Virus record (IMG/VR): IMGVR_UViG_2740892489_000001
DNA from: a virus
Lineage: Duplodnaviria > Heunggongvirae > Uroviricota > Caudoviricetes
Length of the DNA: 49,169 nucleotides
Reading direction: 5' to 3' (one strand)
Shown: positions 23,387 to 39,142 of the stretch, piece by piece
How the letters are laid out: every line of letters begins with the position of its first letter
Position numbering within the stretch: position 1 is the stretch's first letter
The notes under the pieces: model-generated
The model's input: the letters and a program-made list of their open reading frames with translations, nothing else
Databases searched by the model: none
What the model was told of the DNA's origin: nothing
Translations under genes and position numbers: made by a program

Positions 23387-24486
23387 ATGAGCAGACCGGA
23401 CTGGGGGGCGTTGCAGCAGGAGTATATTGCTGAATACACCCGCTCCGGTATATCTCCGGTGGCATGGTGTGAAGCAAGGGGACTGAACTACGCAACAGCC
23501 CGTCGTTACATCAAAAAAAACTCCGAAAAATGCGCAGAAAGAAAATGCGCAAAACTGCGCAAAAAAAGTGCGCGAAAAAAAAACTGCGCAGACTGCGCAA
23601 AGGCAGAACGGAAAATCTCAGAAAAAAAAAGGCTGTATCCGATGCACTCCTGATTGAGGGGGACACGGAAGAAATTTCGTTCTGCCCCGATGAATTCGGT
23701 ATTTCTGACCAGCAGGCAAAATTCGCCATGTTGGTTGCTCAGGGGAAAAAGCCGACAGAGGCATACCGACTGGCTGGTTATGAGGGGCAAGGTGCGACAG
23801 CTAACAGCAACGCCAGCCGTATGCTTAGAAATGCCAGGGTTTATCGTGCTATCAGCTACTTCCGCAATCAGTACCAGAAACGCTATACCGCAGACCTGGA
23901 TTTACTGGTGAGCCAGTTGATGGCCATTGTCCAGGCCGACCCCAATCAGTTGGCACAATTTCGCCGTGTTAACTGCCGTTATTGCTGGGGCGAGAATCAT
24001 CTCTACCAGTGGCGTGATATTGCAGAATTCGATAAGGCTGCGGCACAGGCCTCCAGAGATGGTAAACCCGAGCCGGAATATGGAGGCCTCGGCTTTGTTG
24101 ATAACGCCATACCCAATCCGGATTGCCCGAAGTGCTGCGGTGAGGGAACGGGACAGCTTTATATGGCTGATACCACACTGCTTGATGGGGATGCGCGGCA
24201 ATTATATGCAGGGTCAAAGCTCGGAAAATACGGTGTTGAGATCCTGCTGGAGGATAAGGCTGCCGCCCGGCGTGAATTGTTGCGTTTGCTTTCTGCTGGC
24301 GGGGCATTATGTGCAGATAAACGGCTACAGGAACTGGAAATTGAACGGCGCAGAATAGAAAACCAGAAGCTGCGCAAAGAGATCGAAACGGTGGAGGATA
24401 ATGAACATCCCCAGCCTGTGGCGATCAATATTAATGTGGTTGATGCCAGATTAAGGAGTGATGAAGATGATCTCTCCGACGCTTAA
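23387..24486 (+). CDS. Terminase small subunit; frame ambiguous through A-run repeat region 23513-23630
   Basis: N-terminal ORF 23387..23653 and ORF 23530..24486 (AKFAMLVAQGKKPTEAYRLAGY...ANSNASRMLRNARV) separated only by A8/A7/A9 runs. Confidence 0.6.
23513..23630. repeat. Array of six TGCGC(A/G) hexamers interleaved with A6-A9 tracts
   Basis: TGCGCA at 23531, 23546, 23556, 23585, 23594 and TGCGCG at 23569; A runs at 23513, 23561, 23575, 23622. Confidence 0.5.
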
Positions 24487-32178: not shown

Positions 32179-33144
32179 GTGAGTTCAGGTGCAAAGGTTA
32201 TCTCGGCATTTATCCGGGAGACGGTTGCAGGCACTACGCCAGCAAGTGGTGACTGGAGTTTATTAAAACGCACAAGCTGGGGAGTAAAACCCACCCAGAA
32301 TAAAGGCGAAAATAATGAGATTGGTGGCTCCCGGATGGCTCAGGGGGCGACGCCTGGCACTGTGGATGTCGGCGGTGATGTTGGTACCAAATTTCGCTGG
32401 GGTCAACATGATGATTTTCTTGCATCCTGTTTCGGCGCGGAATGGTCAGGCGATTCTCTGACAATGGGGAATGAGCGAATAACATTTTCTCTGGCGACCT
32501 ATGCGTCCGATGTCGGAATTGCCTCTGTCGTCAGAGGAGCGCAGGTTGGCTCATGGAAAATGCAGATCCCTAACGACGGCGATATTACAGCGACCGTAAC
32601 CTTTGCCGGACTGGACTGGGAATCAAAGGCCGATGATACGAATTTTATCAAAGGCGAACCTGTGGATAGTGCAGGAAAGCTACGTTATTCGTTTAAGGAG
32701 GTTTCAGCAGTAAGCCTGAATGGTGTTGCCGGAGGTAACGGTTTTTGTATCGACAGTTTTGATATTCAGTTCGATAACAAACTCCAGACACAGCGTTGTA
32801 TCGGGACTGGCTCGCCTTATGCAGGAGCAAATATTCCGACTACTTTTACACCGTCCGGTACGGTGACGCTTTCATGGTCTAAAGCCGCGTGGGAAATCTG
32901 GAGTAAAACACTGACTGGAGAAACAGTTCCGTTCAGCTTCACGCTTTCGAATGGAGAGGGGGCATACACTTTCAGTTTCCCGAAGGTTCAGGTGTCAGGT
33001 GAATGGCCTGATGGGGGTAATAGCGACATTATCCAGGTTCAATTGAGCATTACCGCAGCAGATGAAGCACCTACGATAACCAGAAAAAAAAAAAATTCCC
33101 CGGCTGCCGTGATCGCAAAAGCCAGTGCTGAGGCGATTAGTTGA
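32179..33144 (+). CDS. Major tail (tube) protein candidate; C-terminus passes an A12 run
   Basis: 321 aa directly upstream of the G/G-T chaperone pair and tape measure; A12 at 33084-33095 makes the true C-terminus uncertain. Confidence 0.55.
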   Translation: MSSGAKVISAFIRETVAGTTPASGDWSLLKRTSWGVKPTQNKGENNEIGGSRMAQGATPGTVDVGGDVGTKFRWGQHDDFLASCFGAEWSGDSLTMGNERITFSLATYASDVGIASVVRGAQVGSWKMQIPNDGDITATVTFAGLDWESKADDTNFIKGEPVDSAGKLRYSFKEVSAVSLNGVAGGNGFCIDSFDIQFDNKLQTQRCIGTGSPYAGANIPTTFTPSGTVTLSWSKAAWEIWSKTLTGETVPFSFTLSNGEGAYTFSFPKVQVSGEWPDGGNSDIIQVQLSITAADEAPTITRKKKNSPAAVIAKASAEAIS

Positions 33145-33192
33145 TTTTCCGTTATTCCTCCTGTGGTACTGCCCTACAGGGGGACGCATTGA

Positions 33193-33654
33193 ATGAGGTT
33201 ATGGATGTTTATTCTTAATCAGAAAATTATCATTGGTGGAGAACGCTGGTTTACGCCAATGAAGGACTTAAAACCTGTAGACGGGTTAAAACTGTTGGTG
33301 GCAAGCAGCGATAACGATCAGTATCGCTCCCGTAATGCATTAATCCGTCGCCACATTGAGAAAATGGATGCCAGTTTGCACGTCGGAACGAAGGAGTTTG
33401 ATATTTCAAAGGTTTCCGAGGTGGATTCTGTTGATGATTTACTCATTGATAATGCCGCTCGTTATCTGCTGAAAGACTGGAAAGGGGTTGGTGAACTGGT
33501 TAATGGTGTTGAGGTTGCACTGGAATATACGGCAGAACGAGGGATCGCGCTGCTTAAGCAGAATCCAGAGTTGTACTGGCAGATCCTTGCAGAAGCAGCC
33601 AGCATCGCCCAGGGTAAAGAGCAGCAGAAGCAGGATACGATAAAAAAGCCATAG
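33193..33654 (+). CDS. Tail assembly chaperone G
   Basis: Ends with slippery A-AAA-AAG and stop; upstream of tape measure. Confidence 0.6.
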   Translation: MRLWMFILNQKIIIGGERWFTPMKDLKPVDGLKLLVASSDNDQYRSRNALIRRHIEKMDASLHVGTKEFDISKVSEVDSVDDLLIDNAARYLLKDWKGVGELVNGVEVALEYTAERGIALLKQNPELYWQILAEAASIAQGKEQQKQDTIKKP

Positions 33655-33962
33655 CTGCCCAGCGGTGGTTATCGGAGTTCGGGGGAGAAAGGGGGGAAAA
33701 GGCAAGATGGAAGCGAGAAAAACTCAGGTTGCCACCGATACCGGAACCAGAAATAGACCCGGTGCTTAAGGAGTTGTTGTACGCCTATTCGGTAATATCC
33801 CGTGCCCGACGTTATGCTGGAATGGCTGGGGTGCCTTTGCCTTTATCTCTGACAGAGATAAATGAATATTTAGCCACTCATCCGGTATTGATTGAGCGCG
33901 ATGAATTTGAAGCAGTGATCTTTGCACTGGATGACCAGTATTTTCAGGAGCAGTGTGTGTAG
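33193..33962 (+). CDS. Tail assembly chaperone G-T fusion via programmed -1 frameshift
   Basis: -1 frame after heptamer 33642-33648 is open to 33962 and matches track ORF 33729..33962. Confidence 0.55.
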
Positions 33963-34127
33963 TTGTTAATTACGTACACTCTGTTACAGAGATGTGATGG
34001 TGTCTTTAATTAAATCGATGATGCTCCTGGAGAAAAGCATCGCGTGGCCTCGTAATCGCTATATCTACTATTATGTCGCCTGAAACCCACTTCGCGGTGG
34101 GTTTTTTGTTGTCAGGAGTTTTAATAA

Positions 34128-37100
34128 ATGGCAGAGCAAACCTCGCGTCTCGCAATAATTATTGATAGCACTGGAGCGAAAAATAATGCTGACAATCTGA
34201 CCTCCTCATTAGTCAAAATGACGCAGGCTGGGGAAACTGCTGCAAATAGCGCAGGGAAAGTGACTAAGGCAACAGAAGATGAGAAGAACGCGCTCGCAAA
34301 ATTAAAAGCAGCTATTGATCCAGTTGGTGCCGCAATTGATACTGTCGGTCGACGCTATTCTGAATTAAAGAAATTTTTCGATAAAGGGCTTATTGATAAA
34401 GAAGAATATGAATTTCTTGTCCGTAAACTTAATGAAACCACAGAGGAATTGAGCGGGGTTGCGCAAGCGCAGAGAGAAGCCGAGAAGGCCGGAAAACTTG
34501 CTGCCGCCCAGCAGGAAGCGCAGGCTCAGGCCTTTCAAAGAATGCTGGACAAGATCGACCCTCTGGCTGCGGCGCTAAGAAATCTTGAACAACAGCATGA
34601 TGAACTTAATGCTGCGTTTGCATCCGGGAAAATAAATGGTTCTCAGTTTGAGAATTATAGCCGAAAAATACAGGAAACACGGCGAGAGCTTACCGGAGAG
34701 GCTCAGGCAGAGCGAGAAGCAGCAAAAGCGCATGATGAACAGGTTGTTGCTTTGCAACGTCTGATTGCTCAACTTGATCCTGTCGGAACTGCTTTTAATC
34801 GTCTGGTAGAACAACAGAAACAGCTCAATGAAGCAAAAGCTAAGGGGATGCTTTCTCCTGAAATGTATGAGGAGCTTTCTGGAAAACTTCGTGCTATGCG
34901 GAGTGAGCTTGAGGTTACTCAATCACAATTAAGCAAAACCGGAATGTCGGCAAAACAAACGGCTTTTGCTATGCGCATGTTGCCTGCACAAATGACGGAT
35001 ATTGTTGTTGGGTTGTCCACTGGTCAGTCGCCATTTATGGTGTTAATGCAGCAGGGCGGCCAGCTAAAAGATATGTTCGGTGGGATTGGCCCGGCGATCA
35101 AAGGTGTAGGTTCTTATGTGCTGGGATTAATTAATCCTTTTACCCTGGCCGCAGCAGCCGTTGGGGTCTTAGGACTGGCTTACTATAAAGGCTCTCAGGA
35201 GCAGGACGAATTTAATAAATCTCTTATTCTTACCGGAAATCAGTTGGGGACAACCAGCGGGCAATTGGGCGATATAGCTCAACGTGCCGGGAATGCGGCT
35301 GATTCGACAACTGGTGCTGCGGCGGCAGTATTAAATCAGCTTGTGCGTTCGGGAAAGGTAGCGAGCAGTTCGCTGGAGCAAGTGACGACAGCGATAGTAA
35401 AAACGAGCGAAGTAACAGGAATATCAACCGAACAACTGGTTAATGACTTCAATGAAATTGCAAAGGATCCTGTCAGTGCCATATCAAAACTTAATGATCA
35501 GTACCATTTTCTGACACTTGCGACTTATAACCAGATTAAGGCGCTACAGGATGAAGGGAACCAGCAGGAGGCCGCCCGCATTGCGACAGAAGAATACTCA
35601 TCCTCAATGATCCAGCGCACCAACCAGATTAAAGAAAATCTTGGTTATCTTGAGACTGCATGGAAAGCTGTCGCAGACTCCGCAAAATGGGCATGGGATT
35701 CCATGCTGGATATTGGCCGTGAGGCCTCCCTTGATCAAAAAATCTCAGATGTTCTCCGTCAAATTGATGAAATAGAAAAAAATACCCGACCCGGAGTTTT
35801 CGGGTTAGGTGGCATTGGAGATGGCGGAGCTCAAAATAAAAGGCTGGCACGATTAAAGCAGCAATTGGGCGTACTTCAAGCAGAAAAAATTGCTCAGGAC
35901 GTACTAAATTCATCAATAAACGATTACAACAAGCGACAACAGGAAGGAATTGAACTCAGACAGAGAGCAGATGCCTTTTCAAAACAATATCAGACCCGGG
36001 AGCAGCAGAGAGCTAGTGAACTTGCAAAACTGGAAAAGCTAAAGAATCAGTATTCAAAGGAAGAATATAATAATCTTATCGCTCAAATAAATGAGCGTTA
36101 TAAAGATCCAAAGCAACCAAAGGCGAAAGGTTATTCTGATGATGCAGCCCAACGAATGATTGATCATCTGAATCAACAGAATGCGTTACTAAGTTCACAA
36201 GCTGAGTTGACCGTTAAATTAAGTTCCTCTGAACAGGAACTGGTTAAGTGGCGTCAGCGGATTGCCGACCTAGAGTCACGACCATCATCGAAATTAACCC
36301 AGGATCAGAAATCGCTTCTCTTACACCGGGAAGAAATAACCGCGTTGATGGAGAAAAATGTTGCGATTGAAAAGAATAACAGGCTAATCAAGGAATCCGC
36401 CGAAATAACAGCATGGCGTGATTCATTGCAGGCTTCGATTGATAATCGTCAGCAGGGGTATGATATTCAGATTGCTGGTTATGGGGTTGGCGATAAAAAT
36501 CAGCAACGCCAGCAGGAATTACTGCGGATTGAACATGGATATAACAATCAGCGTCTGCAACTTGAACGTGACTATGCAGATAAATCCCGTGGAATGTCAG
36601 ATCATGTTTTTCAAGAGAAAATGCAGGCTCTGAATGATGCTCTGGAACGGGAAAAAGAAATTGTCAGACAGAAAAACGAGCAGCTCGATATTCAGGCAGG
36701 AGACTGGGTTAGTGGTGCCTCCCAGGGATTCAATAACTGGCTGGATGACACTAAGGATATCAGTGAGCAGATAAAATCAACCACGACTCAGATGTTTGAT
36801 GGGATGACCGATGCGCTGGGTGATTTTGTCACGACAGGCAAGGCAAATTTTCGTTCTTTCGCTACTTCCGTGATTTCGGATCTTAGTCGAATGGCATTAA
36901 AGGCTTCAATTACTGGGATTTTCGACAGCATTAGTAACAGTTCTTCTGGGGGGATTTTAGGAACTATCGGGAGTGCTATTAGTAAATTTATTCCGAATGC
37001 AAAGGGCGGTATTTATGAGTCTCCGTCATTGAGCACGTATTCGAACGGTATTTATGATTCCCCGCAATTTTTTTGCTTTTTGCAAAAGGGGCTGGTGTTT

Positions 37101-37363
37101 TTGGTGAGGCTGGACCGGAAGCCATTATGCCATTAACACGAACTTCCGATGGTTCTCTTGGTGTCAGAGCTATTAATAGTAAAAGTGGTAATGGAGGCGG
37201 AGATATTACCTATGCCCCTGTATACCAAATCACTATTCAAAATGACGGCCAGAATGGAGAGATTGGCCCTCAGGCAATAAAAGCACTTATGGGGATGGTT
37301 GATCAGCGGGTGCAGGGCAATCTGTTAAATATGCGACGTGATGGGGGAATATTAAGTGGCTAA
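34128..37363 (+). CDS. Tail tape measure protein; frame broken at T7 run 37068-37074
   Basis: 1002-aa coiled-coil-rich ORF; C-terminal ORF 37073..37363 ([21 protein letters not shown]…) joins if the run is one base longer. Confidence 0.85.
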
Positions 37364-37695
37364 TACGGAAGAATTTCACTGGTTACCAGAGGATGGAATG
37401 AAAACAGAAAATAAACCATCGATAAAAACTGTAAGATTTGGCGATGGTTATGAGCAACGAAGTCCAAATGGACTTAATCATTCTCTGCGCGTTTTCACCT
37501 GTGATTTCAAAGTTGAGGCGAATGAACGTGATTCATTTGAAAAATTTTTAGCCCGGCATGAAGGCTATAAATCTTTTTTTTTGGCGCCCGCCGGGTATTA
37601 ACAGAAAAATCAGAGTGGTGTGTCGAACGTGGTCAGCGACAGAACATATCACCTATACCGATTTTTCGTGTCAGTTTGACGAAGTGGTGATCTGA
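37356..37695 (+). CDS. Minor tail protein M; frame broken at T9 run 37574-37582
   Basis: VRFGDGYEQRSPNGLN... matches lambda M; M-like C-terminus (…CQFDEVVI) is in frame with one fewer T. Confidence 0.75.
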
Positions 37696-38393
37696 TGCAG
37701 GACATACAACAGGAAACGCTGAATGAATGCATTCGTGCGGAGCAGTCGGCCAGCGTGGTGCTCTGGGAAATCGACCTGACCGAGGTAGGCGGGGATCGCT
37801 ACTTTTTCTGTAATGAGCAGAACGAAAAAGGTGAGTCTGTCACCTGGCAGAGTCGGCAGTATCAGGCCTATCCCATTCAGGGGAGTGGATTTGAGATGAA
37901 CGGCAAGGGCAGTGCTGCCCGTCCGACACTGACGGTCTCTAACCTGCACGGCATGATCACCGGGATGGCGGAAGATCTGCAGAGTCTGGTCGGCGGAACG
38001 GTGGTCCGGCGTAAGGTTTACGCCCGCTTTCTGGATGCGGTGAACTTCGTCAACGGAAACAGCGAAGCCGATCCGGAGCAGGAGGTGATCAGCCGCTGGC
38101 GCATCGAGCAGTGCAGCGAACTGAGCGCGGTCAGTGCCTCTTTTGTACTGTCCACGCCGACGGAAACGGACGGTGCCGTTTTTCCGGGACGTATCATGCT
38201 GGCCAACACCTGCACCTGGACCTATCGCGGTGATGAGTGCGGTTATCACGGTCCGGCGGTCGCGGATGAATATGATCAGCCGACGTCCGATATCACGAAG
38301 GATAAATGCAGCAAATGCCTGAGCGGCTGTAAGTTTCGCAATAACGTCGGCAACTTTGGCGGCTTCCTTTCCATTAACAAACTTTCGCAGTGA
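37695..38393 (+). CDS. Minor tail protein L
   Basis: 232 aa, C-terminal Cys cluster CSKCLSGCKFRNN; start overlaps M stop. Confidence 0.85.
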   Translation: MQDIQQETLNECIRAEQSASVVLWEIDLTEVGGDRYFFCNEQNEKGESVTWQSRQYQAYPIQGSGFEMNGKGSAARPTLTVSNLHGMITGMAEDLQSLVGGTVVRRKVYARFLDAVNFVNGNSEADPEQEVISRWRIEQCSELSAVSASFVLSTPTETDGAVFPGRIMLANTCTWTYRGDECGYHGPAVADEYDQPTSDITKDKCSKCLSGCKFRNNVGNFGGFLSINKLSQ

Positions 38394-39142
38394 ATCCCAT
38401 GACAGAGACAGAATCAGCGATTCTGGCGCACGCCCGGCGATGTGCGCCAGCGGAGTCGTGCGGCTTCGTGGTGAGAACACCGGAGGGGGAAAGATATTTT
38501 CCCTGCGTGAATATCTCCGGTGAGCCGGAGGAGTATTTCCGGATGTCGCCGGAGGACTGGCTGCGGGCAGAGATGCAGGGTGAGATTGTGGCGCTGGTCC
38601 ACAGCCACCCCGGTGGTCTGCCCTGGCTGAGTGAGACCGACCGGCGGCTGCAGGTGCAGAGTGATTTGCCGTGGTGGCTGGTTTGCCGGGGGGCGATTCA
38701 CAAGTTCCGCTGTGTGCCACATCTTTCCGGGCGGCGCTTTGAGCACGGGGTGACGGACTGTTACACGCTGTTCCGGGATGCTTACCATCTGGCGGGGATT
38801 GAGATGCCGGATTTTCATCGCGAGGATGACTGGTGGCGTCACGGTCAGAATCTCTATCTGGATAATCTGGAGGCCACAGGGCTGTATCAGGTGCCGTTGT
38901 CAGCGGCGCAGCCGGGCGATGTGCTGCTGTGCTGTTTTGGTTCATCGGTGCCGAATCATGCCGCCATTTACTGTGGTGACAGCGAGCTGCTGCACCATAT
39001 TCCTGAACAACTGAGCAAACGAGAGAGGTACACCGACAAATGGCAGCGACGCACACACTCCCTCTGGCGTCACCGGGCATGGCACGCATCTGCCTTTACG
39101 GGGATTTACAACGATTTGGCCGCCGCATCGACCTTCGAGTGA
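38390..39142 (+). CDS. Tail tip assembly protein K
   Basis: MTETESAILAHARRCAPAESCGFV...VHSHPGG metalloprotease-like and C-terminal Cys/His segment; 3' end overlaps I by about 100 nt. Confidence 0.8.
   Translation: MNPMTETESAILAHARRCAPAESCGFVVRTPEGERYFPCVNISGEPEEYFRMSPEDWLRAEMQGEIVALVHSHPGGLPWLSETDRRLQVQSDLPWWLVCRGAIHKFRCVPHLSGRRFEHGVTDCYTLFRDAYHLAGIEMPDFHREDDWWRHGQNLYLDNLEATGLYQVPLSAAQPGDVLLCCFGSSVPNHAAIYCGDSELLHHIPEQLSKRERYTDKWQRRTHSLWRHRAWHASAFTGIYNDLAAASTFE

Follow-up and report, generated by a model that had tools for sequence, protein, structure and literature searches.

The DNA analysed here, called the window throughout, is a 49,169-nt stretch (IMG/VR virus record IMGVR_UViG_2740892489_000001, Caudoviricetes), and is a Rac-type prophage of E. 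coli. In E. coli strain 13KWH46, whose prophage is a near-identical reference, the neighbours of the same module are trkG, pinR and tfaR and the chromosomal genes uspF, ompN and nifJ. The tube gene, the tape measure gene and the parts of the frameshift locus described below lie on the plus strand. The tail tube (major tail) gene occupies 32179..33144; its product matched Pfam Phage_tube_2 (E 1.3e-31) and is named 'phage tail tube protein' in RefSeq. Where the window has an A12 run in this gene (33084-33095), the references have A9, a difference that keeps the frame. The tape measure gene occupies 34128..37363 and matched Pfam TMP_2, TMP_4 and Tape_meas_lam_C as well as phrog_24. As read in the window, this gene consists of two pieces (34128..37136 and 37073..37363), whereas the reference gene is intact and encodes 1077 aa. 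Directly between the tube gene and the tape measure gene lies a pair of overlapping reading frames, 33205..33962, here called G and T.

The G-like ORF, a tail assembly chaperone ORF of the YdaY family, runs from 33205 to 33654 and has a zero-frame product of 149 aa. The ATG at 33205 is the likely start, and an in-frame ATG upstream at 33193 is less favoured; GAGG is found 5 nt upstream of ATG 33205, and the N-terminus M-x-I-[LI]...GERWF is kept among homologues. Near the 3' end of this ORF, the bases AAAAAAG were found at 33642-33648 in the zero-frame context ATA AAA AAG CCA TAG, giving the canonical phase A|AAA|AAG of a predicted site of tandem -1 tRNA slippage (33642..33648). The zero-frame stop occupies 33652-33654, and a single sense codon separates it from the heptamer. 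A sequence-only reading of this DNA had placed a heptamer A-AAA-AAG at these bases, with the chaperone ORF ending just after it and the -1 frame open for a further ~105 codons to 33962, and both statements agreed with our analysis: the stop lies one codon beyond the heptamer, and the -1 frame, which is open from 33618 to a stop at 33960-33962, has 104 sense codons from 33648 plus that stop (T-like extension, 33648..33962). Because the zero and -1 frames are both open only in 33618..33654 (37 nt), a frameshift must fall within this overlap, in which A-AAA-AAG is the only in-phase X-XXY-YYZ heptamer. The -1 frame contains no ATG, GTG or TTG before 33729, the first start-type codon being the TTG at that position.

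Family assignments were then obtained for the two parts, separately and joined. The G-like ORF matched phrog_313, 'tail assembly chaperone', with E 4e-46, and its homologues carry Pfam PF27119 Phage_YdaY. The T part matched phrog_1189 (unknown function) with E 1.4e-36, and matched Pfam Phage_TAC_18 weakly and under the cut-off (E 4.7e-4; 20.7 versus 27 bits; a match also seen in 6 of 13 relatives). When the two parts were joined conceptually (33205..33648 plus 33648..33962), the predicted G-T fusion of 252 aa (33205..33962) was collinear with positions 20-246 of the 258 positions of the phrog_313 profile (E 8e-51), and scored higher against that profile (174 bits) than G alone (159 bits). In structural comparison, the best match of an AlphaFold model of G among 48,164 PDB chains was the HK97 tail assembly chaperone (PDB 2OB9); G may have an HK97 gp10-like chaperone fold. 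No match was obtained when the PDB was searched by sequence with the family profile or when NCBIfam was searched, and profile comparison of G or T with lambda G/T gave no similarity (hhalign probability 0.1%). The pair is assigned to a family annotated as tail assembly chaperone from the phrog_313 profile matches of G and of the fusion.

How often such a pattern would arise by chance was estimated within the window itself. The motif AAAAAAG was counted 24 times in the window, where 16.5 +/- 4 occurrences would be expected. The 160 stop-to-stop ORFs of the whole window were then scanned for -1 extensions of at least 60 codons; 37 ORF ends had such an extension, and 5 of these 37 also had an in-phase slippery heptamer. 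The bare combination of a heptamer and a -1 extension is weak evidence, within chance; because 5 of 37 ORF ends show a similar pattern, the decision rests on genomic context and on comparison with relatives.

The comparison covered 172 related loci (12 from species-representative genomes and 160 from viral contigs), which formed 10 clusters at 90% identity, the most divergent being 55% identical to the window. The script was checked on lambda, in which it recovered the known G-GGA-AAG, 22 nt before the G stop; a scan of the viral contigs with the divergent homologue P0119 gave no match. An in-phase slippery heptamer was present at the same codon in all 172 loci, as A-AAA-AAG in 170 and as G-GGA-AAG in two. 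By cluster, A-AAA-AAG was found in 8 of 10, and G-GGA-AAG in the remaining two (Raoultella, L011, and Pantoea, L013), in which the protein changes from K to G and the slipperiness of the site is retained. Among the A-AAA-AAG loci the order of the lysine codons is invariably AAA and then AAG, and throughout, the preceding codon ends in the matching base (ATA or GTA, with GTG before GGA). The position of the zero-frame stop varies (10, 28, 82 or 112 nt downstream of the heptamer), while the heptamer is fixed. When tblastn was applied to phage records, the matches always fell in two pieces, one per frame. The evidence from relatives raises the site far above the chance pattern described above. 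Among near-identical viral contigs, L035, L037 and L052 were seen to keep the heptamer and to have the T frame cut at 61, 50 and 39 T-frame codons, respectively (63, 52 and 41 codons when counted from the heptamer); a mutation, an insertion or an assembly error may account for the shorter frames.

Substitution patterns across the 10 cluster representatives revealed where the reading frame under constraint changes. In the 57 nt upstream of the site, the mean pairwise differences at the first, second and third zero-frame codon positions were 0.185, 0.139 and 0.544, respectively; in the 81 nt downstream, the corresponding values were 0.211, 0.530 and 0.246. The most variable (wobble) position is thus displaced by exactly one base on passing the heptamer. 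Moreover, when the 26 codons after the site were compared with the window, 16-25 were identical in the -1 frame (16-22 in loci at 55-74% identity), versus 5-9 in either of the other two frames for the divergent loci. From the heptamer to TTG 33729 there are 27 codons, and these are conserved at the protein level in the -1 frame only. Because the first start codon lies downstream of this stretch and is not conserved (the residue aligned with TTG 33729 is L, K, N or G in relatives), the stretch can be translated only by ribosomes arriving from the G frame.

These observations bear directly on the possibility that the locus holds two independent genes, with G ('YdaY') ending at 33654, a small protein starting at TTG 33729 or 33777, and the heptamer being incidental. 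Such a reading follows the public annotations, which give T a separate start: RefSeq either annotates a 77-aa hypothetical protein from TTG 33729 or leaves the region unannotated, and a GenBank phage record has a 61-aa protein from 33777. An AAGGAG also precedes the TTG codons at 33774 and 33777, and in-phase heptamers do occur by chance at ORF ends in the window, as noted above. However, the annotators disagree on the start; the AGG before TTG 33729 abuts it without a spacer, and AAGGAG lies just 0-3 nt from 33774/33777. The conservation of the 27 codons ahead of TTG 33729, the third-position bias of substitutions in the -1 frame from the heptamer on, and the retention of the heptamer at every locus, with a compensated change to another slippery heptamer, likewise argue against two separately started genes, and we regard this arrangement as very improbable. 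Termination-reinitiation was also considered as a route to T, and was rejected, since the nearest start codon is more than 75 nt away from the stop of G.

A further consideration was whether the A6 run could be a product of sequencing or of decay, the true gene being a single ORF of 250 aa in which the run was miscounted or has mutated. The window gives some reason for this concern. Relative to the prophage of E. coli 13KWH46, it contains at least 17 indels over 27 kb (window 19999-48031), nearly all of them +1 changes in A, T or G runs of at least five; examples are located at 23513, 23542, 23567, 23575, 23622, 25921, 30989, 33084-33095, 37068-37081, 37574-37583, 47714, 47749 and 48024. The indels disrupt the frames of the small terminase gene (five insertions), the tape measure gene and an M-like minor tail gene. 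The homopolymer insertions look like assembly or sequencing error, and could also be real decay. A few database proteins, moreover, are in-frame G-T fusions, such as P0001 (240 aa). Unlike many other homopolymers in the window, which are one base longer than in the reference, the A6 run has the same length as in near-identical reference prophages (100% identity over 33100-34200). Also against a miscounted or mutated run, its length and the two-frame arrangement are the same in 172 independent assemblies, about 1,070 complete E. coli genomes contain a match to the site region (in 1,013 the identity is 99% or higher), and the G-GGA-AAG lineages keep the -1 relationship without having a long homopolymer. 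P0001 is an exception because its frames are joined at a different place, through a deletion that skips 12 residues. The probability that the A6 run is an error or a pseudogenising indel is accordingly close to negligible, and the view of the sequence-only reading, that this homopolymer is functional rather than an error, held up on both the identity of the run in near-identical references and the conservation of the in-phase heptamer.

Alternatively, the slippage might be transcriptional, with RNA polymerase stuttering on the A6 run and mRNAs carrying one A more or one A fewer encoding the fusion. The site does have a run of six As, but the known cases of productive transcriptional slippage in bacteria need runs of about 8-9 or more, and the run here is shorter. 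In some bacterial genes, transcriptional slippage yields the same fusion products (PMC5009743); however, the relatives with G-GGA-AAG (runs of three) and with C-GCA-AAG keep the same arrangement. In addition, the heptamer keeps strictly to one phase relative to the zero frame, and its second codon is always AAG; both are constraints of tRNA re-pairing, and would be needless for a polymerase. We consider it scarcely probable that the polymerase, and not the ribosome, slips at this site.

More distant homologues displayed other forms of the slip site. An in-phase G-GGA-AAG is present in the Acinetobacter phages TCUAN1 and TRS1. In Erwinia phage Gungnir39 (L176:1960-2000) and in a metagenomic locus (L180, 2300-2340), the sequence is GTC GCA AAG TAA, so that A-AAG stands directly before the stop, and Pseudomonas (syringae) phages (L175:1880-1920 and L178:430-470) have G-GAA-AAG at the homologous position. 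The Erwinia/L180 and Pseudomonas lineages thus have no canonical heptamer, but in both the -1 arrangement is retained and the T sequence is conserved; single-tRNA slippage may operate at these sites. The element that is constant across all of the variant sites is A-AAG, read by tRNA-Lys. It is quite possible, though we put it forward only tentatively, that slip sites have replaced one another in the YdaY family as a natural series, in which the lysine core A-AAG is invariant (A-AAA-AAG, G-GGA-AAG, G-GAA-AAG, and the C-GCA-AAG plus TAA of the Erwinia phage, which would imply stop-stimulated single-tRNA slippage in the P site), and that the site in K-12 ydaY, although unannotated, would be functional whenever it is translated.

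Elements that might stimulate frameshifting were sought on both sides of the heptamer. Downstream, the 60-100 nt after the site folded no better than shuffled sequences (z -0.32 for the window), and the local hairpin in the window starts without a spacer. When the 60 nt downstream were folded as single sequences in 11 relatives, z ranged from -1.6 to +0.4 and no common structure, whether stem-loop or pseudoknot, emerged. An Rfam scan of 33400-34300 returned no frameshift element; there was a sub-threshold sroH-like match, on the terminator hairpin only. Upstream, AGGA occurs at 33632-33635, 6 nt from the heptamer, and is present in most relatives and absent in L012. This AGGA coincides with conserved Gln-Asp/Glu codons (CAG GAx), and is inseparable from the coding constraint. 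Because no conserved downstream structure was found, slippage appears to depend on the heptamer alone.

The site was compared with the E. coli dnaX frameshift, which gives rise to tau and gamma. In dnaX, the slip site is preceded, at a distance of about 10 nt, by a Shine-Dalgarno-like element and is followed by a strong hairpin, frameshifting reaches about 50%, and the frameshift product is the shorter one. The slippery sequence is given as A-AAA-AAG in PMC4344849 and PMC1851650, and the window site shares with it the identical heptamer and the same host translation apparatus; tandem tRNA-Lys slippage, as treated in those papers, is the expected chemistry. In contrast to dnaX, the window site has no conserved downstream structure or Rfam match, its predicted frameshift product is the longer one, and its AGGA is at just 6 nt upstream, where it coincides with the Gln-Asp/Glu codons. 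Thus, of the elements of a dnaX-type cassette, the slippery sequence was present, and a conserved stem-loop about 5-9 nt downstream was absent.

The closest parallel in genetic organization is the frameshift that produces gpG and gpGT in lambda (Levin, Hendrix and Casjens 1993; Xu, Hendrix and Duda 2004, 2013, 2014), which is reviewed in PMC5009743. According to this review, G and GT are made at a ratio of 30:1, neither product is found in virions, the partner bound by G is the tape measure protein, and the tube protein is recruited by T; the review also covers how tRNA-Lys (mnm5s2U34) contributes and how widely G-T frameshifting is conserved. As in lambda, the gene pair lies between the major tail and tape measure genes, and the second ORF uses the -1 frame, shares some sequence with the 3' end of the first and lacks a separate start. 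The zero-frame stop is preceded, by a few codons, by an in-phase X-XXY-YYZ with AAG (lysine) as its last codon (10 nt here and 22 nt in lambda), and the sizes are comparable (149 versus 140 aa for G, and 104 versus 144 aa for T). Furthermore, two relatives of the window use exactly the G-GGA-AAG of lambda. The two systems differ in that the heptamer in the window is A-AAA-AAG, neither G nor T could be matched to the lambda proteins by sequence, the tube protein is of another family (Phage_tube_2), and T is separated from the tape measure gene by 165 nt, whereas T overlaps H in lambda. Also, the fusion product and its ratio are, in the window, predictions.

A true, though distant, homologue was found in Acinetobacter phage vB_AbaS_TRS1 (NC_031098, TRS1_19), in which a chaperone CDS joined from two pieces is annotated in RefSeq. 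Its T part is 39% identical to the T of the window (E 4e-6), and, as in the window, the pair follows the major tail gene and has the -1 arrangement with an in-phase slip site. TRS1 differs from the window in having G-GGA-AAG as its heptamer, 85 nt before the zero-frame stop, in a G part whose match to the window is too weak for tblastn to report, and in several extra genes between T and the next large gene.

From these combined data, we conclude with high confidence that programmed -1 ribosomal frameshifting at this site joins the two tail assembly chaperone genes of a siphovirus-type tail in a Rac-type E. coli prophage. The proposal of the sequence-only reading that a G/G-T frameshift joins tail chaperones was strongly supported by synteny, by the family matches, and by the conservation of both the site and the switch of frame in relatives. 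In the mechanism that we envisage, most ribosomes would read the G-like ORF to its TAG and produce the 149-aa chaperone. A minority would slip one base back with tRNA-Lys on AAA in the P site and on AAG in the A site, re-pairing with AAA AAA; decoding would then resume at GCC (33648), and 104 codons of the -1 frame would be read, giving the rarer 252-aa G-T fusion. By analogy with lambda gpG and gpGT, the G part may form a coat on the tape measure protein, and the T part may recruit the tube protein; both G and G-T would be absent from the finished virion, and their ratio would be set by the low frequency of slippage. Most likely, then, this is a genuine programmed -1 frameshift of the known G/G-T kind, in the YdaY family, where it has gone unrecognised by public annotation.

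The same reading had also taken the site to show that the tail module is intact, and here our results disagreed. In E. coli K-12 MG1655, which has a defective Rac remnant, the 201 bp around the site are 100% identical to the window; in this remnant, ydaY is N-terminally truncated and lies beside ynaA, a truncated tape measure pseudogene, and tube and head genes are missing. In the window itself, as read, single-T insertions disrupt two tail genes: there are two in the tape measure gene (about 37068-37081) and one in the minor tail gene after it (37574-37583), relative to references that have no mismatch over 7.4 kb. Because the K-12 remnant shares the site and these tail genes of the window are broken as read, the site does not show an intact tail module. 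In view of the homopolymer indels, the prophage in the window may lack functional tail expression.

Deletions ending in ydaY were observed in several genomes (over 33205-33295; loci L009, L010 and L183; proteins P0040, P0014 and P0019). In K-12, a deletion has fused the ParB-like ynaK to ydaY; in other genomes, different deletions have joined other sequences to ydaY at about residue 27-45, namely a small-terminase-like N-terminus in P0019 and another upstream gene in P0014. The differences among these fusions therefore suggest that Rac prophages have decayed repeatedly and independently through deletions ending inside ydaY.

In public records, the locus is annotated as two separate genes, and no mark of slippage was found on the G/T genes in the RefSeq or GenBank records examined. 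RefSeq names the G-like gene 'protein YdaY' and starts it at TTG 33295, 30 codons later than 33205, which is too late in full-length prophages; this model leaves out 30 conserved N-terminal residues and derives from the truncated K-12 gene model. A literature search on ydaY, frameshifting and the Rac prophage found no paper discussing the function of ydaY. The gene pair is present in 1,075 of 5,426 complete E. coli genomes (about one in five) and in many prophages of Klebsiella, Citrobacter and other bacteria, under the labels 'protein YdaY' plus 'hypothetical protein'. The proper annotation is a tail assembly chaperone with a ribosomal-slippage fusion, which would correct these gene models and would give K-12 ydaY a function. 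YdaY is one more family under the well-known G/G-T rule and changes no concept, so that the main value of the finding is for annotation; the variety of slip sites in the family may also serve as material for testing the minimal sequence that is sufficient for low-level -1 frameshifting in enterobacteria.

Several other features were noted around the gene pair. The 165-nt spacer between T and the tape measure gene (33963-34127) contains an ORF of 28 codons at 33997-34083 (MVSLIKSMMLLEKSIAWPRNRYIYYYVA), followed by a strong terminator-like hairpin at 34082-34105 and a T run. Relatives have other small genes at this position, and the spacer may therefore be an insertion point for morons. Farther downstream, at about 37700-38000, G+C rises from ~0.45-0.47 in the tube, G/T and tape measure genes to 0.58-0.62 in the lambda-like L, K, I and J tail tip genes; this step indicates that the tail shaft module meets the tail tip module at a mosaic junction, and the rise in G+C accounts for a long, spurious antisense ORF at 37671..39089. 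Finally, in E. coli HB-Coli0 (L001:4377-5590), the tube gene of the same prophage is split by an IS3-family element, whose own annotation includes a programmed frameshift.
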